Origin: Flavobacteriaceae bacterium UBA5534
GTDB taxonomy: Bacteria; Bacteroidota; Bacteroidia; Flavobacteriales; Flavobacteriaceae
DNA: 64,000 bases
Direction of reading: 5' to 3'
NCBI GenBank assembly: GCA_002426015.1
Contig: DINS01000021.1
Location: 38,513 to 102,512, forward strand
The translations under genes and the position numbers were made by a program. Below, piece after piece: positions 540 to 41,995 of the stretch. How positions within the stretch are numbered: the first letter of the stretch is position 1; the number at the start of each line of letters is the position of its first letter. Below the pieces are notes generated by a model that worked only from the letters and a program-made list of their open reading frames with translations, was not told where the DNA came from and did no database searches.

Positions 540-576
540 AATCTATATATACTTTTTTAAAACGATTTTTATTAGT

Positions 577-1647
577 TTAGTTTAAAGAATTTTTGAATTC
601 TTTCTGTTCTTTCATCCAAGCATCAAACTCTTCTTGAGTTTCTACGATGATTTTCATTTGCATGTTGTAGTGAGATTTACCACAAATCTTGTTACATAAC
701 AATAGATAATCAAAATCATAACGCTCTAAGGCTTCTCCGCCTTTTGCAACTAAATCTTTGCTTTTGTCTGCTCTTATTTCGTTGATGCGTTGTACTTTTT
801 CAACCATATCAGGGTTTTCCCTCATTTGAGCGGTTGTCACAGTTGGTGTGAAACCAAATTGAGTGATCATTCCAGGAACACAGTTCATTTGCGCTCTAAA
901 ATGAGGCATATAAGCTGAATGTAACACGTCTTGTGAACGCATTTTGAACAATACTGGCTTATTTACTACCAAATGAAGTTCTGTAGTGATAACATCGTCT
1001 TGTGCATTTGGATCGGCTTCATCCAATCCTAAAATGTTGGCTTTATCTAAATCAATCAATCTGACGTTAGCTTGCCCTAATACATTATCTTGACCTGCAT
1101 AACGGGCTTTCCAGTTGAACTGTTGAGCATATAATTCGACCATCATTGGGTCGTCATCTTCATTGACATTCATAATACTTGTCCATGTGAATAATCCGTA
1201 AATGATTAATCCTGCAAGCACAATTACTGGAATGATAGTCCAAATGGCTTCTAATGTGTTATTGTCAGCAAAGAACAGTGCTTTTTTACCCTTTTCGCCT
1301 CTGTATTTAAAAGCAAAGTAATGAAGTAAAAACTGTGTGATTGTCTGCACGATAAAAATGATTACCATAGAGATAATCATCAAGTTATCGAGTTCAGGTC
1401 CATGAGCAGATGCCGAGTTTGACATCAAAGGCAAATCGCCCCATTTCACAAAACACACAATTGTTATGGCATAAATGAAGAGTAGGAAACCTATCATTAA
1501 ATAGCCGTTTATTTTATTGTCATAGTCTGTGGCGACACCAGTATCTGATGTGCTCGTATTAACTTGAGCTAAATCAAATATTTTCACCATCTGCCAAATG
1601 GCAACAGCTACAAAAAGTACTATAATAATTGTTAAAAAAGCAGTCAT
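577..1647 (-). CDS. ctaC: cytochrome c oxidase subunit II
   Basis: 356 aa with N-terminal TM helices. CuA-type motif H...CxxxCGxxHxxM is present (DVLHS...CNKICGKSHYNM). Adjacent to subunit I. Confidence 0.85.
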   Translation of the reverse strand: MTAFLTIIIVLFVAVAIWQMVKIFDLAQVNTSTSDTGVATDYDNKINGYLMIGFLLFIYAITIVCFVKWGDLPLMSNSASAHGPELDNLMIISMVIIFIVQTITQFLLHYFAFKYRGEKGKKALFFADNNTLEAIWTIIPVIVLAGLIIYGLFTWTSIMNVNEDDDPMMVELYAQQFNWKARYAGQDNVLGQANVRLIDLDKANILGLDEADPNAQDDVITTELHLVVNKPVLFKMRSQDVLHSAYMPHFRAQMNCVPGMITQFGFTPTVTTAQMRENPDMVEKVQRINEIRADKSKDLVAKGGEALERYDFDYLLLCNKICGKSHYNMQMKIIVETQEEFDAWMKEQKEFKNSLN

Positions 1648-1675
1648 TGTCGTTTCTCTTCTTTATTTAATTTAA

Positions 1676-3037
1676 TTAATAATGGAAATGTTCACTTTCT
1701 TTAATGAATGGATTTCCTTTTGCCAGTAATGGTGCTTTTGTTAAAGCCGTAAATACTACAAATATGAATAATCCAGCAAATAATAATATCGAGCTAATTT
1801 CTGGAATACCTATAAACCAACGGTCTCCGACAGTTGCAGGCATTATCATATTGAAAATATCTATATAATGTCCGCATAAAATAACGATACCAGCCATCAC
1901 AACAAACCAAGGAATACGTTTGTAATCACTATTCATCAATATCAATAATGGGAACACAAAGTTCATAACGACCATTCCTAAAAATGGTAATTGGTAATCT
2001 TGGAATCTTGTTACGAAATAGGTTACTTCTTCTGGAATGTTTGAATACCATATCAACATAAATTGTGAGAACCACAAATACGTCCAGAAAATACTGATAC
2101 CAAACATAAATTTAGCTAAATCGTGTAAGTGACTATCATTTACAAATGGTAAAAGTCCTTTAGATTTTAAATACATCGTTACCATCGCAATTACAGTGAT
2201 ACCACTAACAAACATACTTGCAAATACGTACCATCCAAATAATGTTGAGAACCAGTGAGGGTCAACACTCATAATCCAATCCCAAGACATCATTGATTCT
2301 GTATAAATATAGAATACTAAAAACGCTGCTGAAATACGGAATGATTTTTTGAAATTACGATTATCGTTGACATCGGCATTATCTTGTGCAATAGAAAACT
2401 TACGTGCAAAATGTCTGTAAGTACACCATCCTGCAATAAATATCAGTCCTCTAATAATAAATCCAGTCATGTTTAAGAAGCCTGACTTACCTTGAATTAA
2501 TTTGTCATGAGCAACAACTTCTGGGTCCATCCAAACGAATAAGTTGTAATGTCCTATGGTTCCTGAAGCCACAGCAATTCCTAAAACAATTAATGCTCCT
2601 GGCAATAAATAGGCTGTGATCCCTTCCATGACTCTGAACAATACTGGAGACCATCCAGCTTGTGCTGCAAATTGTATTGCATAAAACGCTAAAGCGCCTA
2701 ATGCTATCATCATAAAGAAGAAAGCTGCTACATATAATGCAGACCAAGGTCTGTTGGCAATTTGATGCTGAACATGTTTTGCGTGTTCATCACCATGGTG
2801 AGCTTCTGCAACGTCAACATGAGCTTCTTCTGATGACTGTTCGCCGTGAGTAGCAACCGCTTCATGTGCTGCAGCTTCTCCATGACCACCTCCATGTGCA
2901 GATGCTTCTTCTGCAAGCATTGTTTTTACTTCATCTAAAGATTTGTGAGATGTCATAAAACCATATCCAACACCTAATAATCCTAAAATGATTAAGGCGA
3001 ATGAAAATGTCTTTAATTTATTTGAAAATGTATACAT
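1676..3037 (-). CDS. actF: alternative complex III (quinol:cytochrome c oxidoreductase) membrane subunit ActF
   Basis: 453-aa polytopic membrane protein, last gene of the actABCDEF order. Carries a His/Glu/Ala-rich insert after TM1. Confidence 0.7.
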   Translation of the reverse strand: MYTFSNKLKTFSFALIILGLLGVGYGFMTSHKSLDEVKTMLAEEASAHGGGHGEAAAHEAVATHGEQSSEEAHVDVAEAHHGDEHAKHVQHQIANRPWSALYVAAFFFMMIALGALAFYAIQFAAQAGWSPVLFRVMEGITAYLLPGALIVLGIAVASGTIGHYNLFVWMDPEVVAHDKLIQGKSGFLNMTGFIIRGLIFIAGWCTYRHFARKFSIAQDNADVNDNRNFKKSFRISAAFLVFYIYTESMMSWDWIMSVDPHWFSTLFGWYVFASMFVSGITVIAMVTMYLKSKGLLPFVNDSHLHDLAKFMFGISIFWTYLWFSQFMLIWYSNIPEEVTYFVTRFQDYQLPFLGMVVMNFVFPLLILMNSDYKRIPWFVVMAGIVILCGHYIDIFNMIMPATVGDRWFIGIPEISSILLFAGLFIFVVFTALTKAPLLAKGNPFIKESEHFHY

Positions 3038-3039
3038 AT

Positions 3040-3627
3040 CTATATTGAATCTTTAACAGTCTTATTTCCTCCTAATTCTGATTTTAAGTCCATAACGTAG
3101 TTAACTACTTGCCAACGTTCTTCTTCGTTAAGTTGATTGGCATAAGAACCCATGGCGTTTTTACCATAATAAATAGTATGATAAACACTTCCAGCAGTAA
3201 TTGCTCTACCAGCATCATCATAACTAGGTACACCCAAAATCTTTTCTCTTTTTACAAGGTTACCTTGTCCATCTCCTTTCTTTCCATGACAAATGCCACA
3301 GTAAATATCATATAACTGACCTCCACGAATGGGATCAATTTGTGTAGAATCTAACGGACTCACTACAGTTTCTTTAGCCAATAAATATCCATCATTGGTA
3401 TTATCAATGTCAAAAGGTGTAAATCCTCTTGGAATTGAACCTTCTGCTGGCAACTGGGCTTCAACACCATTTGCAAAAGCATTAGACTCACTGTAAGTTT
3501 CATATCCTACAGGTTCGTACATATTTGGCATGAATTGGTAATTAGGTCTTGTATCTTTTTTACATGAAGCAAAAGATACTAATACGATAACCAATATTGT
3601 TGTTTTAAATAAGCTTCTCATAATCAA
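3040..3627 (-). CDS. actE: alternative complex III monoheme cytochrome c subunit ActE (lipoprotein)
   Basis: 195 aa. Lipobox-like LVSFASC and a single CxxCH (CGICH). Position in the act cluster fits. Confidence 0.75.
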   Translation of the reverse strand: MIMRSLFKTTILVIVLVSFASCKKDTRPNYQFMPNMYEPVGYETYSESNAFANGVEAQLPAEGSIPRGFTPFDIDNTNDGYLLAKETVVSPLDSTQIDPIRGGQLYDIYCGICHGKKGDGQGNLVKREKILGVPSYDDAGRAITAGSVYHTIYYGKNAMGSYANQLNEEERWQVVNYVMDLKSELGGNKTVKDSI

Positions 3628-3630
3628 CTA

Positions 3631-4164
3631 TTAATGCGCTTTATCAATGATGTTAATTTCTACTGCTCCTGTCTCTTTTAATAATTGAGCTAATTCTTTT
3701 TCGTTATTGTGAATTGCAATTTCCATTAAGAAATGGTCATCAGTCGTTCTTGGATCAGGATTTTCAGCTTTTTTGAATGGCCACATCCTACTTCTTAAAT
3801 AAAATGTAATCACCATTAAATGCGCTGCAAAAAACACGGTCAACTCAAACATAATTGGCACAAACGCAGGCATGTTTTCAATATAACTGAAACTTGGTTT
3901 TCCACCAATATTTTGAGGCCAATCTTCGATCATGATGAAATTCATCATCACAATAGCAACGGTCAACCCAATGCATCCATATATAAATGAAGCAATTGCA
4001 ATACGTGTTGGGGCCAATCCCATGGCTTTGTCTAAACCATGCACTGGAAAAGGCGTAAATATTTCTTCTATATGATGTCTTTCAGCTTTCACTTTCTTGA
4101 CAGCTGACATTAACACATCATCATCAGTATAAATAGCGTGAATTACTTTTGAAGATTCTTCCAT
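3631..4164 (-). CDS. actD: alternative complex III membrane subunit ActD (DUF3341-like)
   Basis: 177 aa with two predicted TM helices. Lies between actC and actE with 3-8 nt spacers. Confidence 0.7.
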   Translation of the reverse strand: MEESSKVIHAIYTDDDVLMSAVKKVKAERHHIEEIFTPFPVHGLDKAMGLAPTRIAIASFIYGCIGLTVAIVMMNFIMIEDWPQNIGGKPSFSYIENMPAFVPIMFELTVFFAAHLMVITFYLRSRMWPFKKAENPDPRTTDDHFLMEIAIHNNEKELAQLLKETGAVEINIIDKAH

Positions 4165-4171
4165 ACTATTA

Positions 4172-5899
4172 TTAGTTTATTAGTTTTTTAGCTTGTCCAG
4201 ACCAATCATCACGTTCTGCTCTTCCTGGGAATGAGCCTGTGATTTCGTCTAACAAGTCGTATTCTCTTTTTGTCATTTTGCTCACTTGTAAGAATGTATA
4301 AATGCCTATACTATTCAGTACTTCTTCCATTTTTGGTCCAATACCATTTATTTGCTTAAGGTCGTCCGCTTTTTGAGTATTGGCATCAAACTTACCTATG
4401 CTTTCAAATAAACTATTGACTTTATCTGAAGTGTCTGCTTTTGCTTTTGAAGGTGATTTAACAGTACCTTGTTTTCCAGAAGTTCTTGGATCGGCACCTG
4501 TACCGACCAAACTATCACCTCTTTCTCTAATGTTTTTATATCGCTCACCAGATGATTTCAAGATTGTTTTTACTTCTGCCTGTGCTATTACAGGAAATGT
4601 ACGTGCGTATAATAAGAACAATACAAAGAAGAATCCAATGGTTCCGATAAAAATTCCTATATCAACAAATGTTGGTTGGAACATTGTCCAAGATGATGGT
4701 AAGTAATCTCTGTGCAATGAGGTTACGATAATAACGAAACGCTCAAACCACATACCCACGTTTACCACAATAGAGATAAAGAATGAGAACATGATACTTG
4801 TTCTTAATCTCTTGAACCACATAAACTGTGGCGAGAACACGTTACAAGACATCATCATCCAGTATGCCCAAGCGTAAGGACCTGTTGCTCTGTTTAAGAA
4901 TGCGTATTGCTCATATTCTACTCCAGAGTACCAAGCGATGAACAACTCTGTGATATATGCCACACCAACGATAGAACCTGTTATCATGATAACGATGTTC
5001 ATCAATTCGATATGTTGCACTGTAATATAATCTTCAAGGCTACATACCTTTCTCATAATGATAAGGAGGGTATTTACCATGGCAAATCCCGAGAAAATTG
5101 CTCCTGCAACGAAGTATGGTGGGAAAATTGTGGTATGCCAACCTGGTATTACTGATGTTGCGAAATCAAAGGATACAATTGTATGTACAGAAAGTACAAG
5201 TGGTGTTGCTAAACCTGCAAGTACCAAAGATACTTCCTCAAAACGTTGCCAGTCTTTTGCTCTACCTGTCCATCCAAAACTTAATAATGAATAGATTTTC
5301 TTTTGGAAAGGCTTTACTGCCCTATCTCTAATCATTGCGAAATCTGGCAATAATCCTGTCCACCAGAACACTAATGAAACCGATAAGTACGTTGAGATTG
5401 CAAAAACGTCCCAAAGTAGTGGTGAGTTAAAGTTGACCCAAAGTGAACCAAATTGATTTGGAATTGGTAATACCCAATAGCCTAACCATGGACGGCCCAT
5501 GTGAATGACAGGGAATAAACCTGCTTGAACCACCGAGAAAATAGTCATTGCTTCAGCAGAACGGTTAATCGCCATTCTCCATTTTTGACGGAACAGTAAA
5601 AGTACAGCAGAAATCAGTGTTCCTGCGTGACCAATACCAACCCACCAAACGAAGTTAGTAATATCCCAAGCCCAACCAACGGTTTTGTTAAGACCCCAAA
5701 CACCAATTCCAGTTGAAATGGTATAAATGATACACCCAATCCCCCAAAGAAATGCTACTAATGAAATAGAAAAAACTATCCACCATGCTTTATTGGCTTT
5801 TCCTTCTACAGGTCTTGCTACATCCACAGATACATCATGGTATGATTTTTCGCCTGTAACTAAAGGTCTTCTAATAGGTGCTTCGTAATGAGACGCCAT
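4172..5899 (-). CDS. actC: alternative complex III quinol-binding NrfD/PsrC-like subunit ActC, with about 125-aa soluble C-terminal extension
   Basis: 575 aa. NrfD-like polytopic core. Tail contains DDLKQINGIGPKMEEVLNSIGIYTFLQV...GRAERDDWSGQAKKL. Confidence 0.8.
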   Translation of the reverse strand: MASHYEAPIRRPLVTGEKSYHDVSVDVARPVEGKANKAWWIVFSISLVAFLWGIGCIIYTISTGIGVWGLNKTVGWAWDITNFVWWVGIGHAGTLISAVLLLFRQKWRMAINRSAEAMTIFSVVQAGLFPVIHMGRPWLGYWVLPIPNQFGSLWVNFNSPLLWDVFAISTYLSVSLVFWWTGLLPDFAMIRDRAVKPFQKKIYSLLSFGWTGRAKDWQRFEEVSLVLAGLATPLVLSVHTIVSFDFATSVIPGWHTTIFPPYFVAGAIFSGFAMVNTLLIIMRKVCSLEDYITVQHIELMNIVIMITGSIVGVAYITELFIAWYSGVEYEQYAFLNRATGPYAWAYWMMMSCNVFSPQFMWFKRLRTSIMFSFFISIVVNVGMWFERFVIIVTSLHRDYLPSSWTMFQPTFVDIGIFIGTIGFFFVLFLLYARTFPVIAQAEVKTILKSSGERYKNIRERGDSLVGTGADPRTSGKQGTVKSPSKAKADTSDKVNSLFESIGKFDANTQKADDLKQINGIGPKMEEVLNSIGIYTFLQVSKMTKREYDLLDEITGSFPGRAERDDWSGQAKKLIN

Positions 5900-33608: not shown

Positions 33609-33950
33609 ATGAGAGTTAGATTTTATATAGGCATCTTATTCCTTTCTATACAACTTGCGAGCATAGTTTATGCACGTTTTATACCTGAACGGTTTTTTTG
33701 CTGGGCACCTTATGATAGCCATACGTTATTTGAGGTTTTTGTAACTATTGATGGTAAAACACTCTCACAACAAGAAACAGAAAAACGTTACGGTTATAAA
33801 ATGAAAGGTTGGGAACAACGGTCAATCGATAATATTTTTTCTCTCATAAGGCAATATGAAAGAACCTATGGCAAAAATGATCGTGCAGAAGTAAAAGTAA
33901 TCTATTCAACTAATGGACATCCTGAAAAAGAATGGAAACTAACACGGTAA
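33609..33950 (+). CDS. hypothetical single-pass membrane protein
   Basis: 113 aa with one N-terminal TM helix. 19-nt overlap with the next gene suggests co-translation. Confidence 0.4.
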   Translation: MRVRFYIGILFLSIQLASIVYARFIPERFFCWAPYDSHTLFEVFVTIDGKTLSQQETEKRYGYKMKGWEQRSIDNIFSLIRQYERTYGKNDRAEVKVIYSTNGHPEKEWKLTR

Positions 33951-35062
33951 TTCAACAATCATCTTTCTGGAAACGACCTTTACAATTTGAAGGTACGCCT
34001 TTGTTACCAAATGTTTTGTTGATGTGCAAATTAATTGTACTGCTCTTGTTGGCTCACCATATTTTTGCTAAAATCGAAGACCCTTTTATTCCGTTTATTC
34101 CAGCTTTAGATATTTTTCATACTATCCCAAACCTATTCAAACTGGTTTTAAGGAGCTTACTTGTCATTTCGGTTACCACACTTTTTTTTAATTTTTATGT
34201 CAGGACATCTGTCATTGTAATAGGCAGCATCGTTATCTTAAGTATTTTAGCTTCAAAACCAGATTTTTATAATCATACTTTTATTTGTGGTTGTGCCTTG
34301 TTCCTATCAGGATTGACAAATAACAAACAGCCTCCATATTTGCTTTTTTTACAATTGGGGCTTGTGTATTTTGGCGCCTCAATTAATAAAATTTTTGATG
34401 CCGATTGGTGGTCAGGAGCCTTTATGCATAATTGGTTGGCTGTAGCTAGAGAAAATCCTTTTTATTTACTCGTTTCAAAATGGTTTCCACATCTTTGGTT
34501 TGCAAAATTTTTATCTTGGACTGCCATTTCTACAGAATTTATCATTGCTTTTATGGTTATAAGCAAAAAGTATAGAAACTTTGGTATTTGGTTTATTATC
34601 ATTTTTCATACGATTTTATTCACAATGACATCTTTTCGATATGGTCATTTTATTGAATCGTTAGCGTTGATATTATTGGCTTTTTTGGCTTGGCCAAAAG
34701 GCAACATGCTTGTAGAGCATAAACCCAATGCTTATCATCTATTTAGAAAAATAATGCGCTTGATGGATTGGGACAATAAAATTATTTGGAAAGAAAAGAA
34801 GTTTGAAGATAATTCATTTATAGAATTAACAACTCAAACAAAAAAAGTAACCAATGATGTTGCTATAAAAAATATCATTTTATATACTCCTGCTTTTTAT
34901 ATCATTCTTGTGGTTTCAGATATGGTGTTATATGTCATTTTATACAATCATAGAACAACTCTATTTGTATTAAATGCAATCACGATATGGGCTTTAATTA
35001 TTTACTTTTTACCAATTAATTGGTCAAACTATTTTAATAAAAAGAAGACTACTTATAAATAG
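33932..35062 (+). CDS. hypothetical polytopic membrane protein (weak HTTM-like layout with a DUF393-like tail that lacks CxxC)
   Basis: 376 aa with about 8 TM helices. The family resemblance is my recollection only, so confidence in it is low. Confidence 0.45.
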   Translation: METNTVIQQSSFWKRPLQFEGTPLLPNVLLMCKLIVLLLLAHHIFAKIEDPFIPFIPALDIFHTIPNLFKLVLRSLLVISVTTLFFNFYVRTSVIVIGSIVILSILASKPDFYNHTFICGCALFLSGLTNNKQPPYLLFLQLGLVYFGASINKIFDADWWSGAFMHNWLAVARENPFYLLVSKWFPHLWFAKFLSWTAISTEFIIAFMVISKKYRNFGIWFIIIFHTILFTMTSFRYGHFIESLALILLAFLAWPKGNMLVEHKPNAYHLFRKIMRLMDWDNKIIWKEKKFEDNSFIELTTQTKKVTNDVAIKNIILYTPAFYIILVVSDMVLYVILYNHRTTLFVLNAITIWALIIYFLPINWSNYFNKKKTTYK

Positions 35063-35987
35063 CAATCGTTTCTTTCCCTTGCGAGGTTTTAAAAGCGCGA
35101 TACATCCCTTCGGTATTGAATGGCATAGCGATGTTTCCTTTTGCGTCAATTGCAATCAATCCACCATCTCCTTGTATTTTAAGGATTCTTTTATTTATAA
35201 CTTCGTTTGACGCTTCCTCAACAGACATCCCTTTGTGCTCCATTAAACAGGACACATCATAAGCTACAACACCTCTAATAAAATATTCGCCACTTCCTGT
35301 ACAACTTACAGCACAGGTTTTATTGTTTGCATAAGTACCAGCGCCAATCATTGGGCTATCACCAACGCGTCCCCATTTCTTGTTAGTCATTCCTCCTGTC
35401 GATGTTGCCGCCGCAATATTCCCTTTTTGGTCGCAAGCAACTGCTCCCACAGTTCCAAATTTGCCATCCTTTTTTGCACTATGATCCAATTGAAAATTGT
35501 CACTGTCTTTTATATCTTGCCATTGTTGGTATCGTAAATTATCATAAAAATACTCTGGTGTTTCAATGGTGTGACCATTACTTTTAGCAAACTTCATAGC
35601 ACCTTCACCAGCCAAAAAAACATGATAACTTTTATCCATGATATCGCGAGCTAATGACACAGGGTTTTTAATTCCGGTCACTAAAGAGACTGCACCAGCT
35701 TTAAGATTTTCACCGTCCATAATTGCAGCATCCATTTCGTGTGTACCTTCGGCTGTAAATACCGAGCCTTTCCCAGCATTAAATAGTGGAGAATCTTCCA
35801 ATAATTTGACTGCAACCTCAACTGCATCAACTGCGCTTCCACCTTTTTCTAAAACAGTATAACCTTGCGATAATGCATTTTGTAAAGCAGCTTTGTATTG
35901 AGTTTCCAGTTGTTCAGTCATCAAACCTTTTACGAGTGTTCCAGCACCTCCGTGAATGGCAATTGAAAAATTATTCATTAGTATCAT
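35049..35987 (-). CDS. iaaA: isoaspartyl peptidase / L-asparaginase (Ntn hydrolase)
   Basis: 312 aa. HGGAG near the N-terminus and autoprocessing Thr in FGTVGAVA. Confidence 0.88.
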   Translation of the reverse strand: MILMNNFSIAIHGGAGTLVKGLMTEQLETQYKAALQNALSQGYTVLEKGGSAVDAVEVAVKLLEDSPLFNAGKGSVFTAEGTHEMDAAIMDGENLKAGAVSLVTGIKNPVSLARDIMDKSYHVFLAGEGAMKFAKSNGHTIETPEYFYDNLRYQQWQDIKDSDNFQLDHSAKKDGKFGTVGAVACDQKGNIAAATSTGGMTNKKWGRVGDSPMIGAGTYANNKTCAVSCTGSGEYFIRGVVAYDVSCLMEHKGMSVEEASNEVINKRILKIQGDGGLIAIDAKGNIAMPFNTEGMYRAFKTSQGKETIAIYK

Positions 35988-36079: not shown

Positions 36080-38917
36080 ATGTCAGACCAAAAACGACTT
36101 TTTTTAGTAGATGCTTATGCATTGATTTTTCGTGGCTACTATGCCTTTATAAAAAACCCTAGAATTAATTCTAAGGGACTTGATACTTCAGCCATATTAG
36201 GTTTTACCAACTCATTGTTAGATGTCATAAAACGTGAACGCCCAGATCATTTAGCGGTTTGTTTTGATAAAGGCGGAAGTGTCGACCGAGTTGAAATGTT
36301 TGATGCATACAAAGCCAACAGAGATGCAACACCAGAAGCTATTAAGATTGCTGTGCCTTACATAGAACAGATTTTAAGAGCCATGCACATCCCTATTATG
36401 GTCAAAGATGGTTTTGAAGCTGACGATGTTATTGGGACACTTTCTAAACAAGCTGAAAAAGAAGGCTATAAAACTTTTATGGTGACACCAGATAAGGATT
36501 TTGCACAATTGGTAAGCGAAAACATATTTATGTACCGACCAGTTTTTGGTGGCGGATACGAAACTTGGGGTATTGAAGAAGTAAAAGCAAAATTTGAAGT
36601 TGAAGACCCATTGCAGGTCATTGACTTTTTAGGCATGATGGGAGATTCATCCGACAATATTCCTGGACTGCCTGGTGTTGGTGAAAAAACAGCCAAAAAG
36701 TTTATTGCGCAATATGGAAGTATGGAAAACCTTTTGGCTAATACACACGAGCTAAAAGGAAAAATGAAAGAAAACATAGAAGCCAATAAAGAACTGGGAT
36801 TGCTCTCAAAAAAATTGGCAACAATCATGCTCGATGTTCCTGTGGATTTTGATGCTAAAGATTTTGAAATGTCAGAGCCCAATATTGAAGAGGTTACCAA
36901 TATTTTTCAGGAGTTAGAGTTTAGACAACTACTCACAAACTTTCAGAAAACATTTTCAGCAGAAACCACTACCGAAACACCGCAACCGAATTCCACAGAA
37001 AAACCAAAAGAGGTCAAAAAACCAACATCAGCAGGCGCTGGTCAATTCTCGTTATTTGATGCTCAAGGCAATGAAGAAGCAATTATAACATCTCAAAATG
37101 CCAGAATCACATCAGCAACAAACTCGCATTTTTATCAAAGTGTGGCATCAGGAATGGCCACCAAACTATTTATACAAAACCTGATGAAACAAACCAGTGT
37201 GTGTTTTGATACCGAAACCACTGGCATTGACCCAATAACTGCAGAATTAGTTGGTATTGCTTTTTCTTGGGAAGCTGGAAAAGGCTTCTATTTACCATTC
37301 CCAGAAAATAAAGACGAAGCACAAGAACTTATTGAGCAATTACGTCCGTTTTTTGAAAGTGAAACCATTCAAAAAATAGGTCAGAATTTAAAATACGATA
37401 TTAAGGTTCTTCGAAAATATAATGTAAAAGTAAAAGGCAAACTGTTTGATACCATGTTAGCACATTATCTCATAAATCCAGATATGAGGCATAACATGGA
37501 TGTATTAGCAGAAACTTATCTAAATTATACGCCTATTTCTATAGAAGAATTAATAGGTAAAAAAGGGAAAAATCAGCTTTCAATGAGAGACGTTCCTTTA
37601 GATAAGCAAACTGAATATGCTGTGGAAGATGCAGATATAACACTTCAGCTAAAAGAGCATTTTGAAAAAGAATTAGGCGACGCTAATACTCAAAAATTGT
37701 TTGATGAGATCGAAATTCCACTACTTCGTGTCTTGGCTGATATGGAACTTGAAGGAATTAATCTAGATGAAGATTTTTTAAATTCACTTTCGGAACAATT
37801 GGATAGCGATATCAAAACTTTGGAAGCGAATATTTATAAAGAGGCAGGAGAGGAATTCAATATTGCATCACCTAAACAATTGGGTGATATTTTATTTGAT
37901 AAACTTAAATTGGTCGATAAGCCAAAGAAAACAAAAACAGGACAATATGCGACCTCTGAAGATATTTTGAGTTATTTGGCAAAAGATCATGAGATTATTC
38001 AACATATTTTGGATTATCGAGGTCTTGCAAAACTGAAAAGCACTTATGTTGATGCTTTGCCTACACAAGTAGAGCCATCTACTGGAAGGGTTCATACCGA
38101 TTATATGCAAACCGTTGCCGCAACAGGACGTTTGAGCAGCAATAACCCTAACCTACAAAACATTCCAATCCGTACCGAACGCGGACGCCAGGTAAGAAAA
38201 GCATTTATTCCAAGAGATGAAAATTACATTTTACTAGCGGCAGATTATTCTCAAATAGAGCTACGCATTATTGCCGCTTTGAGCAAGGAAGAAACCATGA
38301 TCAATGCCTTCAAAAAAGGAGAAGATATTCATGCTTCAACAGCTTCAAAAGTATTTAATGTCCCCATAGAGGAAGTTACGCGTGAACAACGTAGCAACGC
38401 CAAAACGGTCAATTTTGGAATCATCTATGGTGTATCTGCCTTCGGATTGAGCAACCAAACCGATTTATCACGTGGCGAGGCCAAAGAGCTAATTGACACC
38501 TATTATGCCACCTATCCTAAATTGCGAAATTTTATCAGCGAACAGGTTGATTTTGCACGCAACAATGGCTATGTACAAACCGTTTTGGGCAGGCGTCGTT
38601 ATTTAAACGACATCAACTCCAGAAACGCAGTTGTGAGGAGTGCTGCCGAACGTAATGCTGTCAATGCACCAATACAAGGAAGTGCGGCAGATATTATTAA
38701 AATTGCGATGATTAACATCCATAAAAAACTGGAAGAAGGCAATTACAAAACCAAAATGTTGTTACAAGTACACGATGAGTTGGTGTTTGATGTTTATAAA
38801 CCAGAATTGGAGCCCATCAAAACCCTCGTTAAAACTGAAATGGAAAACGCCTATATATTGGACGTACCATTAGATGTCGATTTGGGCGTTGGCAATGATT
38901 GGCTAGAGGCACATTAG
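36080..38917 (+). CDS. polA: DNA polymerase I
   Basis: 945 aa. Contains a 5'-3' exonuclease domain, a 3'-5' exonuclease domain (FDTETTG), and polymerase motifs (DYSQIELR, QVHDELVF). Confidence 0.97.
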   Translation: MSDQKRLFLVDAYALIFRGYYAFIKNPRINSKGLDTSAILGFTNSLLDVIKRERPDHLAVCFDKGGSVDRVEMFDAYKANRDATPEAIKIAVPYIEQILRAMHIPIMVKDGFEADDVIGTLSKQAEKEGYKTFMVTPDKDFAQLVSENIFMYRPVFGGGYETWGIEEVKAKFEVEDPLQVIDFLGMMGDSSDNIPGLPGVGEKTAKKFIAQYGSMENLLANTHELKGKMKENIEANKELGLLSKKLATIMLDVPVDFDAKDFEMSEPNIEEVTNIFQELEFRQLLTNFQKTFSAETTTETPQPNSTEKPKEVKKPTSAGAGQFSLFDAQGNEEAIITSQNARITSATNSHFYQSVASGMATKLFIQNLMKQTSVCFDTETTGIDPITAELVGIAFSWEAGKGFYLPFPENKDEAQELIEQLRPFFESETIQKIGQNLKYDIKVLRKYNVKVKGKLFDTMLAHYLINPDMRHNMDVLAETYLNYTPISIEELIGKKGKNQLSMRDVPLDKQTEYAVEDADITLQLKEHFEKELGDANTQKLFDEIEIPLLRVLADMELEGINLDEDFLNSLSEQLDSDIKTLEANIYKEAGEEFNIASPKQLGDILFDKLKLVDKPKKTKTGQYATSEDILSYLAKDHEIIQHILDYRGLAKLKSTYVDALPTQVEPSTGRVHTDYMQTVAATGRLSSNNPNLQNIPIRTERGRQVRKAFIPRDENYILLAADYSQIELRIIAALSKEETMINAFKKGEDIHASTASKVFNVPIEEVTREQRSNAKTVNFGIIYGVSAFGLSNQTDLSRGEAKELIDTYYATYPKLRNFISEQVDFARNNGYVQTVLGRRRYLNDINSRNAVVRSAAERNAVNAPIQGSAADIIKIAMINIHKKLEEGNYKTKMLLQVHDELVFDVYKPELEPIKTLVKTEMENAYILDVPLDVDLGVGNDWLEAH

Positions 38918-38926
38918 ATTAACAAT

Positions 38927-40111
38927 CTACTTTTTAAGAGCATTCATCGTACCCAAACGTTGACCCATAAGTATAGAGATTGAACTAAAAACGTCTTTTT
39001 GGTATAGCATAATATTGAGAGAACCTCCATAAGCAAAGTACCCAAGTTCATCTCCTTTTTTAATAGGTACTGGAACAGATCCTGGAGGGACCATGGTTGA
39101 TTTGTTATTGACAACAGAAGGATGAATGGAGCTTATAGTGTTTAGTCCCACAGGTATTAAAGCAACATAACCATAATCTTTAGTTTCTATAATAAAATAA
39201 GCACGATGAAAGTCTTCAAAAATGCTAAAATCGGTTGTACTCTCACCTATATCACCTTTATTAAACCAATCTTCGCCATCCAAAATTCCGTTATAAATCC
39301 CTGCAACTTCTTGTGACTCTACAATTTTTCCGGTTACTGGTGCATGATAATGATGGTAACTATTTGGCATCAAAACACAAGACACAGCAGTTCCATCAAC
39401 AAAGTATTTGGCATATTTTGAGCCATTCAAGAGGTCATGTACATTGATATGTCTTGTTTTTACTTTTAATGGTGTTGTTAAGGTTAAATCGGACTCAATA
39501 AAATTAATTTCTGTATCACCTGAAGCAACAACGACAGAGTCATCATCTGCACTCGCAATTGGTCTTGGGTCTTTAGATATTTTTAGTTTTCGCGTGAAAA
39601 ATTCATTGAACGATTTGAAGCCTCCTTCTGGAACTACAAAATCGTCAATTTTAGTAGAAGGGTCTTCCATCCATTTCTTAATGTACAGCAATGATTCTGG
39701 TGAATCCATAAAGTTGCCTCGCGCTTTGATAAACTTTACTGACCAATTAAAAATCTCTTTAGAATAAGGTACATTTGAATTTTTTCGACTTTCAAACGTA
39801 TTGAGAAAGTCAAAAGCTTTTTTGTTCTCCAAATAAAAATAAGTAAATGGCATAATCTTACCCAAACCACCTACTGGAGTAGGCAAAAACGTAAACCAGT
39901 TTTCAAAATACGTAACTAAATAATCAATCTTTTTACCTATCCAAGGGTTTGGCTTCCCATTTTGCAACGTAGGTGTTAAATTAGCAATGGCTTCATCAAA
40001 AGCTTTTACGACTTCTGGGTTGCTTACTATCTCTCTTAATTCTTGCATCAGTTGCTTCATTTCAGAATTTAAAGGTGGTTGCAAGTCGGTTAAATCGATG
40101 TCTTGACTCAT
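38927..40111 (-). CDS. long phosphatidylserine-decarboxylase-family (pyruvoyl) enzyme with PSDC/PsiD-like N-terminal domain
   Basis: 394 aa. PSD motifs SYHHYHAPVTG and GDELGYFAYGGS (Gly-Ser self-cleavage site). The N-terminal region of about 180 aa is absent from short housekeeping Psd. Confidence 0.75.
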   Translation of the reverse strand: MSQDIDLTDLQPPLNSEMKQLMQELREIVSNPEVVKAFDEAIANLTPTLQNGKPNPWIGKKIDYLVTYFENWFTFLPTPVGGLGKIMPFTYFYLENKKAFDFLNTFESRKNSNVPYSKEIFNWSVKFIKARGNFMDSPESLLYIKKWMEDPSTKIDDFVVPEGGFKSFNEFFTRKLKISKDPRPIASADDDSVVVASGDTEINFIESDLTLTTPLKVKTRHINVHDLLNGSKYAKYFVDGTAVSCVLMPNSYHHYHAPVTGKIVESQEVAGIYNGILDGEDWFNKGDIGESTTDFSIFEDFHRAYFIIETKDYGYVALIPVGLNTISSIHPSVVNNKSTMVPPGSVPVPIKKGDELGYFAYGGSLNIMLYQKDVFSSISILMGQRLGTMNALKK

Positions 40112-40132
40112 GATCTTATTATTTTGAAAACG

Positions 40133-41887
40133 TTATATTGATTTTAATTGTGCCTCACTTATATCGATAATGGTACAAACTTCTGTAACCGTAACAAACT
40201 CATCTGATTCGTACATGCCATTACTAATTAAGTGTGTAATCGCAGGAGGTGTATTGAATTCTATTTTTTTAGGGTCTTTTATATACAAAGCTTTGGCGTT
40301 TTCAAGGTCTTGCTTACAACCTTCCATAAATTGCACATAAGCATCTGTTGGAGATACTGTACCTCCTTTTATAATGCTATCCCAATGTGTTACAACTCCT
40401 AAAAGTGCCCATGCAGCAATAGCTTTTGGCATTGGATCGCTTTTTACAAAATCCAAAATGCCTTTAAAGCTTTTTAGTTTTTTAAGTTCGTCGTCTAAAT
40501 TATTGGATGCATCGTTTTTACCACCATAAGCAACAACTAATTCTTCAAAGGTTGCTTTTAAATAGCTATCTGGATTTTTAGCTGCATTCATTTTAGCGTC
40601 AGCAATCATTAACTTATCAACGATTGGCATCGCATGCCATAAATAATTCAATTTACTAATTCCCATTCTGTCATCTATGGTATCCATAAAACCTAAAATA
40701 ACAGCACTACACAAAATAGGCCCTACATCTAGCATATCTGCATACATTTGAACAATATCAAAAATGACATCTGCTGATGTTTGTGCTGCCCAAGATGTTG
40801 CTTTATCGGGAGGTAATGGTTTTTTACCTTTAAAAGAACCCATATCCCCATTAATTCTCGCTTTTTCATAGGCTTCGTATTCGGCTAATGTAAACGGTCT
40901 GATTTGTTCAACCGTTAAGCCTTGTTGCTTCCAAACAGGCTCAAAATACGTTTCGTCTGATGGCAGAAATCCAGGATCTGGACCAATGACATTGTTATAA
41001 AACAGTTTGAATTTTTTAAATAAATCGGCACCTTCAGTTGTACCATATACTTCCTGAAATGATGCTAAATTGTGTGGCAAGTTTAAAGCAATCGTAGCGA
41101 CCAAAGTTTTATGTGCTGCACAATAGGTGTTCCAGGAATCATCAGTGTGTAAATAGCTTTCATAATTAATCCAGTCTCTATAAAACATGAGTGCTGTGTT
41201 AATATCAACTGGCCTGAATTTGGAATGCTTATAAATCTGTGCATTTGCGCTTGGAAATTCCACACCACTATTCAAACAAACATCCACATAAGTCAAATTT
41301 TTATTTACCGTTGCTTGCGGCACATTTTTAAGTGATATAATTTGAACATTGGCTGGATACCCAAATATCGTCTGATTGGCTTCACCAGTAACACCAAATC
41401 GATGCCAATGGTACAACATTGGCGCATTGGTCGTGTAGCCTTTCCCATAGTAGGCACCAAGATGTGTGAAGCCCATTTCGATTTTTTCGGAGGTTGGCGA
41501 CAATAGTTCTTGAATGGTTCCTTTATTCAGTTCCGGATGAAAATAATTGATGAGCGCATATATAGGCTCATTGGCTTTGAGATTCATTTTCTTACGGAGG
41601 AAATCATCTATATAATAAAAGCCCGATTTATAGTTTTTATCAGGTCCCATAATACTATCGTTATTGCTTACAGGTACAAAGTGCATTCCGACGCTTCCAT
41701 CAGCTAGCCTATATTGATAATCTTTAACAACAAATGAAGCGCCATTAGGAAGTATGACTTCAGTAGAGCCAAATTTGTCTCTGGCAATTTTGTAATTTTT
41801 AAGGGCTTGGTCAGTTAATTCGAAATCACCAGCATAGGTTGATTTACCGGCATCGTGAAAGATTGGATTTCTGTAAGGGATTTGCAT
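40133..41887 (-). CDS. hypothetical protein, 584 aa, no recognisable family
   Basis: Long uninterrupted ORF with no signal peptide or TM helix. Lies 21 nt upstream of the PSD-like gene on the same strand. Confidence 0.6.
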   Translation of the reverse strand: MQIPYRNPIFHDAGKSTYAGDFELTDQALKNYKIARDKFGSTEVILPNGASFVVKDYQYRLADGSVGMHFVPVSNNDSIMGPDKNYKSGFYYIDDFLRKKMNLKANEPIYALINYFHPELNKGTIQELLSPTSEKIEMGFTHLGAYYGKGYTTNAPMLYHWHRFGVTGEANQTIFGYPANVQIISLKNVPQATVNKNLTYVDVCLNSGVEFPSANAQIYKHSKFRPVDINTALMFYRDWINYESYLHTDDSWNTYCAAHKTLVATIALNLPHNLASFQEVYGTTEGADLFKKFKLFYNNVIGPDPGFLPSDETYFEPVWKQQGLTVEQIRPFTLAEYEAYEKARINGDMGSFKGKKPLPPDKATSWAAQTSADVIFDIVQMYADMLDVGPILCSAVILGFMDTIDDRMGISKLNYLWHAMPIVDKLMIADAKMNAAKNPDSYLKATFEELVVAYGGKNDASNNLDDELKKLKSFKGILDFVKSDPMPKAIAAWALLGVVTHWDSIIKGGTVSPTDAYVQFMEGCKQDLENAKALYIKDPKKIEFNTPPAITHLISNGMYESDEFVTVTEVCTIIDISEAQLKSI

Positions 41888-41995
41888 GTTTCAATGGATT
41901 TAAAATGTTTAAGTTACGAATTTTTTACATTATAGATTATGTATCTACTTGATTATTAATTTAATACATTCGTTCATCAACGAAAAACCATTATT

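Follow-up and report, generated by a model that had tools for sequence, protein, structure and literature searches.

An undescribed protein family with a conserved His-Cys-Asp trio, encoded between a sensor cyclase and a PsiD-like decarboxylase in a Flavobacteriaceae genome

A three-gene locus on the minus strand

The 64,000-nucleotide stretch of Flavobacteriaceae bacterium UBA5534 analysed here (assembly GCA_002426015.1, contig DINS01000021.1, positions 38,513 to 102,512; hereafter the window) contains three consecutive genes on one strand, coding for a sensor nucleotide cyclase, a soluble protein of no recognizable family that we refer to as X, and a pyruvoyl decarboxylase (Table 1). A first-pass annotation made from the sequence alone had given the coordinates of the X open reading frame (ORF) and its length of 584 amino acids (aa), which are borne out, but not its strand, which is minus; two strings that it quoted from the protein, LYHWHRFGVTGE and WNTYCAAHKTLVAT, are both present in the translation. 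It had also placed the end of X 21 nt before a phosphatidylserine decarboxylase (PSD)/PsiD-like gene on the same strand with no terminator between them, and the ORF map and a terminator scan agree: the X stop codon and the ATG of the decarboxylase gene are 21 nt apart, and the only terminator-like match lies inside X, with none in the 21-nt or the 108-nt spacer. The longer spacer, between the stop codon of the cyclase gene and the start of X on the same strand, likewise stands as described, but the weak hairpin seen there is not significant, as shuffled sequence folds at least as well (z = 0.43). A scan for sigma-70 promoters gives matches at the level of shuffled sequence, although Bacteroidota promoter types fall outside its models, so that it is silent on an internal promoter. 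X has no signal peptide, and its most hydrophobic 19-residue window (Kyte-Doolittle mean of 1.65, residues 381-404) is borderline; these residues are modelled as short, broken helices buried in a confident globular structure, in keeping with the initial view that X has neither a signal peptide nor a transmembrane helix.

Table 1. Genes, spacers, and candidate active-site codons of the X locus (window positions)
Feature	Position	Strand	Basis or remark
PF02666 pyruvoyl decarboxylase gene, PsiD-like, 394 aa	38927..40111	minus	Pfam
Spacer between X and the decarboxylase gene, 21 nt	40112..40132	minus	Terminator scan: none
Gene X, 584-aa soluble protein	40133..41887	minus	ORF, ATG start
Asp373 codon	40769..40771	minus	At start of helix 371-382; proposed third triad member
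Cys256 codon	41120..41122	minus	Motif TYCAAHK, first residue of helix 256-269; proposed nucleophile
His142 codon	41462..41464	minus	Invariant, on beta-strand 140-146; proposed catalytic base
Spacer between the cyclase gene and X, 108 nt	41888..41995	minus	No terminator, no significant structure
Sensor nucleotide cyclase gene, 697 aa	41996..44089	minus	Pfam

The decarboxylase belongs to PF02666 (PS_Dcarbxylase; E = 4.9e-32, 111.6 bits against a gathering cut-off of 22) and carries the self-cleavage motif FAYGG/S at residues 359-364, with Ser364 encoded at positions 39020-39022. This GG/S motif is shared with the PsiD-type members of the family; it aligns with FHFGG, where the PsiD beta chain ends, and the HHYHAP region is also kept. 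The protein scores below every NCBIfam equivalog cut-off for PSD (at best 107 bits against a cut-off of 371), and its best matches in the Protein Data Bank (PDB), and thus its best structural relatives, are structures of the Psilocybe L-tryptophan decarboxylase PsiD (8zia/8x4q, E ∼1.5e-9), ahead of Escherichia coli PSD (E = 3e-6). Because PsiD outranks PSD and the equivalog cut-offs are not reached, the protein is more likely a soluble amino-acid enzyme than a lipid enzyme; the same scores and ranking speak against a bona fide PSD. Amine chemistry thus appears more likely than lipid head-group chemistry on these sequence comparisons.

The cyclase contains 7TMR-DISM_7TM (PF07695, E = 1.1e-22) and Guanylate_cyc (PF00211, E = 7.1e-19) domains, and begins with a lipoprotein-like N-terminus, after which come an extracellular region and then the 7TMR-DISM and class III cyclase domains; no NCBIfam model matches it. 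The ORF as listed starts with TTG, and its N-terminus, MKVKTKKTSFWLLMLLFIAMLLFTGCSG, resembles a lipoprotein signal with a lipobox cysteine.

A protein family without detectable relatives

X is the first member of an undescribed family of ∼580-residue proteins with no fold relative detectable by sequence or Foldseek. It matches no Pfam-A or NCBIfam family at E ≤ 1 and no PADLOC model, and 35 diverse family members compared with Pfam at E ≤ 10 gave nothing across the X region. Searches of PDB sequences with the single X sequence and with a 40-sequence profile returned only noise, including a major histocompatibility complex chain (E = 2.3) and helical bundles (E > 0.2). An AlphaFold2 model built from a 40-sequence alignment has a mean pLDDT of 92.4 and a pTM of 0.92, and this, together with full-length homologues that span 90% to ∼25% identity, argues that X is not a chance ORF. 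The model opens with a beta-rich part (residues ∼1-190); a large helical region follows (∼190-555), and two C-terminal strands (565-581) go back to the sheet. No Foldseek match reached E < 1e-3 or a TM-score > 0.5: the full model gave a best E of 0.19 (TM-score ≤ 0.12) against PDB and of 0.8 against the predicted viral structures of BFVD. Because the long helical regions could hide an N-terminal match, residues 1-310 were modelled alone (pLDDT 86, pTM 0.85) and searched separately, with a best E of 0.1 and TM-score ≤ 0.19 against PDB. The original description of X as without a recognizable family therefore holds for Pfam-A, NCBIfam, PADLOC, PDB sequences, and PDB and BFVD structures, and no confident profile or structural match to a housekeeping family emerged from the profile and Foldseek searches. 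A more sensitive structure comparison could place X within a known thiol-enzyme fold.

The family is rare but widely spread. A word-indexed search recovers 117 clusters of X-family proteins at 90% identity, all of them unnamed or called hypothetical protein, and an exhaustive phmmer search of 1.84 billion representatives finds 167 relatives (50%-identity representatives) at E ≤ 1e-3. The window protein itself is present exactly in public data, in a 90%-identity cluster that holds WP_148457510.1, a hypothetical protein of Formosa maritima. Among 185,579 species genomes, with one genome per species, 62 loci encode a relative of X. Hosts within the Bacteroidota include Flavobacteriaceae, Cyclobacteriaceae, Runella/Arcicella, and Saprospiraceae, and beyond that phylum X is found in Sphingomonadaceae, a Pseudomonadales metagenome-assembled genome (MAG), Acidobacteriota, Spirochaetales, and many Myxococcota. 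A tblastn search of 72,556 plasmids and 50,697 phages with X gave no homologue, and repeating the profile search with an alignment confined to X (A3) brought back the same family, with no annotated relatives. The family is undescribed in the searchable literature on PSD-like clusters, bacterial PsiD-like enzymes, 7TMR-DISM proteins with decarboxylases, and cyanobactin-like clusters with unknown domains; the curacozole paper (PMC11575548) does not mention an X-type domain.

Alignment of ∼230 family sequences to the family hidden Markov model (HMM) shows the conservation of three polar residues whose codons were checked in the window sequence. Position 142 is His in 229/229 aligned sequences, position 256 is Cys in 228/229, and position 373 is acidic in 221/224 (Asp in 203, Glu in 18). 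Asn269 is kept in 227/230 sequences, Tyr146 in 222/227, and Thr572 in 210/213, and these six residues are the sole invariant polar positions in two alignments (A2 and A3) that reach down to 21 to 25% identity and include fusion proteins from pathways for ribosomally synthesized, post-translationally modified peptides (RiPPs), described below. His142, Cys256, and Asp/Glu373 can be regarded as essentially invariant.

Gene neighbourhoods and domain fusions

Genomic neighbours of X were translated and clustered at 64 loci, made up of the window and the distinct loci retrieved, with coverage and third-codon-position GC (GC3) filters, and all loci were also searched with the partner proteins of the window and of other loci. 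The loci fall into clade A (≥57% identical to the window X), clade B (42 to 49% identical), and clade C, with 33 Myxococcota-type loci. In clade A, which is drawn from Flavobacteriaceae, Cyclobacteriaceae, Arcicella, and metagenomes, a 7TMR-DISM cyclase, X, and a PF02666 decarboxylase are encoded in the same order and on the same strand in 11/11 loci, including the window. The triad behaves as a module in its own right, given that the genes flanking it vary from genome to genome. The cyclase gene, which the first-pass annotation had treated simply as the gene preceding X, is better seen as the conserved first gene of this module. X and the decarboxylase are also joined in a single protein of 985 to 989 aa (P0015, P0017 from locus L010, P0030, and locus L017), with L010 and L017, whose fusions measure 985 to 987 aa, among the clade A loci. 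In L010, a metagenomic Bacteroidota contig, the cyclase and the X-decarboxylase fusion (positions 568-4190) lie just downstream of DNA methylase, GmrSD, HEPN, and ParE/YoeB-type genes, a setting that resembles a defence island.

Clade B is more varied in its partners. The Runella loci (L021 and L032) and L025 encode X with a different, soluble cyclase and a PF02666 protein. Three Flavobacteriaceae loci (L020, L022, and L024) and one from Saprospiraceae (L066) also have X and a soluble cyclase, with a pyridoxal phosphate (PLP)-dependent Pyridoxal_deC protein replacing PF02666; a DJ-1/PfpI protein is additionally present in L020, L022, and L024. At L020:9779-13772, and also in L022, L024, and L066, an operon adjoining X encodes three proteins, namely one of 645 aa that is weakly Pyridoxal_deC-like, a DJ-1/PfpI protein, and a 445-aa soluble class III cyclase; a fatty-acid desaturase and an amino-acid permease are encoded on the other side.

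In sphingomonads the cyclase gives way to a TIR_2+TPR protein. A Qipengyuania locus encodes TIR_2+TPR, a 497-aa PF02666 protein, and X, and L023, L027, and L028 encode TIR_2+TPR, X, and a 502-aa protein; the latter is also found downstream of X in L030, a short contig that starts near X. This conserved, Pro-rich protein of ∼500 aa (L023:9718-11226 and its counterparts in L027, L028, and L030) constitutes a second unannotated partner family, with no Pfam or PADLOC match. The L023 protein was considered as a divergent PSD and rejected, having no BLASTP similarity to PSD and no Pfam match. In the Pseudomonadales MAG, a PF02666 gene is transcribed divergently from X.

Outside the Myxococcota, 29 genome loci can be compared, and X is found beside a PF02666 decarboxylase in 13, a PLP-dependent decarboxylase in 4, a class III cyclase in 18, and a TIR_2+TPR protein in 4. 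A decarboxylase of either type lies within ∼5 kb of X in 17/29, and several of the others lie on contigs that are truncated. Clade C is organized differently, with a decarboxylase or cyclase in 0/33 loci. Its X proteins often have an N-terminal LysM domain or a Pro/Thr-rich extension, and the neighbouring genes code for NlpC/P60+PG_binding_1, PmbA/TldD, and OmpA proteins and a sigma-54 regulator, among others. In one lineage, a Myxococcaceae MAG (L006:9856-10500), a gene for a 214-aa DAGK_prokar (diacylglycerol kinase-like) membrane protein follows X by 8 nt, as the sole lipid-related partner observed. A Bacteriovoracaceae homologue has a signal peptide.

The pairing of X with a decarboxylase, which was first proposed from the window alone, is therefore strict among close relatives, with the decarboxylase gene beside X in every clade A locus, and is strengthened by the fusions; it does not extend to the whole family and is absent from the Myxococcota. 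The fusions, the strict clade A synteny, and the replacement of a pyruvoyl enzyme by an unrelated PLP enzyme together argue strongly that X is functionally coupled to an amino-acid decarboxylation step in clades A and B.

More distant homologues of X are domains of proteases related to PatA and PatG. Eight proteins of 1,085 to 1,219 aa (P0127, P0129, P0130, P0133, P0135, P0153, P0277, and P0278) have the architecture Peptidase_S8-X-PatG_D-PatG_C, three others (P0123, P0126, and P0128) combine X with the PatG domain of unknown function (DUF), and P0138 combines S8 with X; the invariant His, Cys, and Asp are kept in these fusion proteins. At L074:3609-10666 the S8-X-PatG gene is followed by a Cys-rich small ORF ending in ...CTQQCRYCYANEQCSSSEWCRQNQPNFPLGCFP, a nitroreductase gene, a gene for a 356-aa protein, and a YcaO gene, an arrangement typical of azol(in)e RiPP clusters. 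A Cys-rich 91-aa ORF lies directly upstream of the S8-X-PatG gene at L077:1701-5255, and at L076:8125-11809 the gene adjoins a polyketide synthase gene and an 85-aa ORF. These three loci may represent an undescribed cyanobactin-like RiPP class with X as a built-in domain. As in the PatA/PatG cyanobactin proteases, an S8 protease and the PatG DUF are present, with the X homologue sitting between them, and at least one such gene is in a YcaO/nitroreductase cluster; the window X differs in having neither S8 (PF00082) nor the PatG DUF (PF18047/PF18065), and no RiPP genes are nearby. We know of no X-type insert in canonical PatA/PatG. The presence of X domains in S8/PatG proteins, in the context of RiPP clusters, indicates that the fold has been recruited into peptide-maturation enzymes, and this recruitment fits amide-bond chemistry by a thiol nucleophile.

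Candidate active site, function, and alternative explanations

An invariant cysteine that opens a helix, when accompanied by an invariant histidine and an acidic residue, is the hallmark of hydrolases and acyl- or peptidyl-transferases that depend on a thiol. The predicted structure of X suggests that it is a thiol-dependent hydrolase or transferase, and the helix-start Cys256 and the strand-borne His142 are also seen in the separate model of residues 1-310. The layout compared with papain-like and transglutaminase-like enzymes, with Cys256 at a helix start, His142 on a strand, and Asp373 at a helix start, comes from secondary structure and not from three-dimensional distances. X shares with the Cys-His-Asp thiol enzymes (papain-like, transglutaminase-like, NlpC/P60, LRAT, and NAT; e.g., lasso-peptide leader peptidases) the invariant His, Cys, and acidic residue, and is likewise tied to peptide pathways; as in these enzymes, its Cys is predicted to sit at a helix N-terminus facing a beta-region that bears the His. 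However, X has no sequence or Foldseek similarity to them, it is far larger (∼580 residues), and its residues are in the order His...Cys...Asp rather than the Cys...His...Asn/Asp of papain-like and transglutaminase-like proteins.

In the reading that we tentatively prefer, although it may well prove wrong, X is a His-Cys-Asp thiol enzyme for amide or ester bonds that acts before or after the PsiD-like decarboxylase, with the 7TM cyclase coupling the module to an external cue. Cys256 would be the nucleophile, His142 the base, and Asp373 the third member of the triad, and the enzyme would form or cleave an amide or ester bond in a substrate derived from an amino acid. X might release or conjugate an amino acid that the decarboxylase would then turn into an amine, or it might instead acylate the amine product of the decarboxylase; an external signal would reach the module through the seven-transmembrane (7TM)-receptor cyclase. 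Thiol catalysis is itself inferred, as are the substrate, which step comes first, and what the cyclase does. The chemistry of X may involve peptide or amide bonds, because its distant homologues are domains of PatA/PatG-like RiPP proteases, and the YcaO/nitroreductase locus, the LysM fusions of the Myxococcota, and the NlpC/P60 and TldD/PmbA neighbours there also support this. The two-step amine or lipid head-group pathway proposed initially is thus supported overall, with amines favoured over lipids by the PsiD-likeness of the decarboxylase and with peptide or amide chemistry added as a possibility. X is probably part of an undescribed small-molecule or peptide pathway and is a strong candidate for new enzymology, and we rate both X, as a protein family and fold, and the triad, as a gene module, as new.

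Several points weigh against this thiol-enzyme reading. Foldseek finds no cysteine-hydrolase fold for X, and the helical location of Asp373 departs from that of the third residue in papain-like triads. The decarboxylase link holds in some clades but not throughout the family, given the 0/33 Myxococcota-type loci, and co-transcription of X with the decarboxylase gene is deduced from spacing and synteny. The cyclase may be a mere regulator or be unrelated to the chemistry. Finally, His142, Cys256, and Asp373 could equally bind a metal, which leads to the main alternative, that X is a metalloenzyme in which these residues, perhaps with His117, Glu119, His160, and His259, coordinate Zn, Fe, or Cu for redox or lyase chemistry on the amine or amino acid of the decarboxylase, such as oxidation, hydroxylation, or cyclization. 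Many His and Tyr residues beyond the invariant ones are conserved (His117, Glu119, His160, and His259 at 87 to 94%), the CxxH spacing of Cys256 and His259 corresponds to one helical turn, and amino-acid decarboxylases are often paired with oxidative tailoring enzymes. We nonetheless regard a metalloenzyme as unlikely: His259 is swapped for Phe, Asn, Gln, or Leu and His160 for Arg, Glu, or Tyr, Pfam and Foldseek searches reveal no known metal-enzyme fold or motif, and a His/Cys/Asp trio in which the Cys begins a helix more typically marks a nucleophile.

A bolder version of the thiol-enzyme reading, decidedly speculative, is that the new His-Cys-Asp fold, an interchangeable pyruvoyl or PLP decarboxylase, and a 7TM cyclase or TIR protein form an unrecognized module that synthesizes or processes an amine- or peptide-derived signalling molecule, or acts as a conflict effector, and that the same domain was recruited into PatA/PatG-like proteases for RiPP tailoring or macrocyclization. 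Slimmer still is the prospect that the module serves in defence or conflict signalling, with the class III cyclase (or TIR in sphingomonads) activating, or cooperating with, X and the decarboxylase as effectors that yield, for example, a toxic amine or a modified nucleotide-amino-acid conjugate. A cyclase or TIR_2+TPR protein lies beside X in 22/29 non-Myxococcota loci, as the commonest neighbour there, which recalls the cyclase-effector and TIR-effector pairs of Pycsar (PycC) and Thoeris; in PADLOC the TIR protein matches Thoeris and SAVED-TIR models and the cyclase domain matches PycC models. L010 has methylase, GmrSD, HEPN, and toxin-antitoxin genes alongside, L005 is next to an integrase gene, and module flanks vary. 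However, any class III cyclase domain would be expected to match the PycC models, as Pycsar cyclases have this domain in common, and only the cyclase and TIR domains match such systems: X and the decarboxylase have no PADLOC match, neither Pfam nor PADLOC detects a cyclic nucleotide- or ADP-ribose-binding domain in the module, and X has no homologue on plasmids or phages. The window cyclase is of the 7TM environmental-sensor type, and the housekeeping genes that surround the window module include polA and genes for ribosomal proteins.

The tight adjacency of X to the decarboxylase and their natural fusion could also mean that X is a non-catalytic partner, either a scaffold, a regulatory subunit, or a maturation or activation factor comparable with PanZ/PanM for PanD, and pyruvoyl proenzymes can require helper proteins (PMC3496974). 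This role is very unlikely for X, which lacks a PF02666 neighbour at most loci, can instead adjoin a PLP decarboxylase, an enzyme type for which cleavage is not required, and is also embedded in RiPP proteases; the strict co-occurrence expected of a PanZ-like activator fails, with PF02666 near X in 13/62 genome loci, and a protein of 65 kDa whose His, Cys, and Asp are strictly invariant resembles an enzyme. The arrangement of X and the decarboxylase also resembles the two-step logic of PssA and PSD, in which a conjugate is made and then decarboxylated, but X has no similarity to PssA or any transferase family and the window decarboxylase is no PSD equivalog. A lipid head-group pathway, in which X makes a serine- or amino-acid-bearing lipid for the PSD-like enzyme to decarboxylate, is suggested by the PF02666 membership of its neighbour, the DAGK_prokar pairing, and the fatty-acid desaturase genes beside X in L020, L022, and L024, but is highly improbable, as the decarboxylase resembles soluble PsiD more closely and misses the PSD equivalog cut-offs by a wide margin, no membrane segment is present in X, the DAGK pairing occurs in one lineage only, and the replacement PLP decarboxylases belong to a family (group II) that acts on free amino acids.

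X would add a new fold and a new enzyme family to those known, with its candidate active site already defined, in a system of only two or three genes. The fusions and the pyruvoyl/PLP interchange make an unusually strong genomic case for X acting on, or together with, a decarboxylated amino acid, and indicate undescribed amine chemistry in marine and freshwater Bacteroidota. The X domain in PatA/PatG-like proteases suggests an unrecognized tailoring or processing activity in azole-type RiPP pathways, with potential for peptide engineering, and the recurrent pairing with a 7TM-receptor cyclase or TIR protein hints at a link between amine metabolism and nucleotide second messengers in bacteria.

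On the far side of the decarboxylase gene, polA (36080..38917, plus strand) converges with it, and the two stop codons are separated by 9 nt, where no terminator-like structure was found. Beyond polA, a gene for a 376-aa multi-pass membrane protein (33932..35062, plus strand) overlaps convergently by 14 nt (35049-35062) with an asparaginase-like gene (35049..35987, minus strand), the latter named from its sequence without a family scan.

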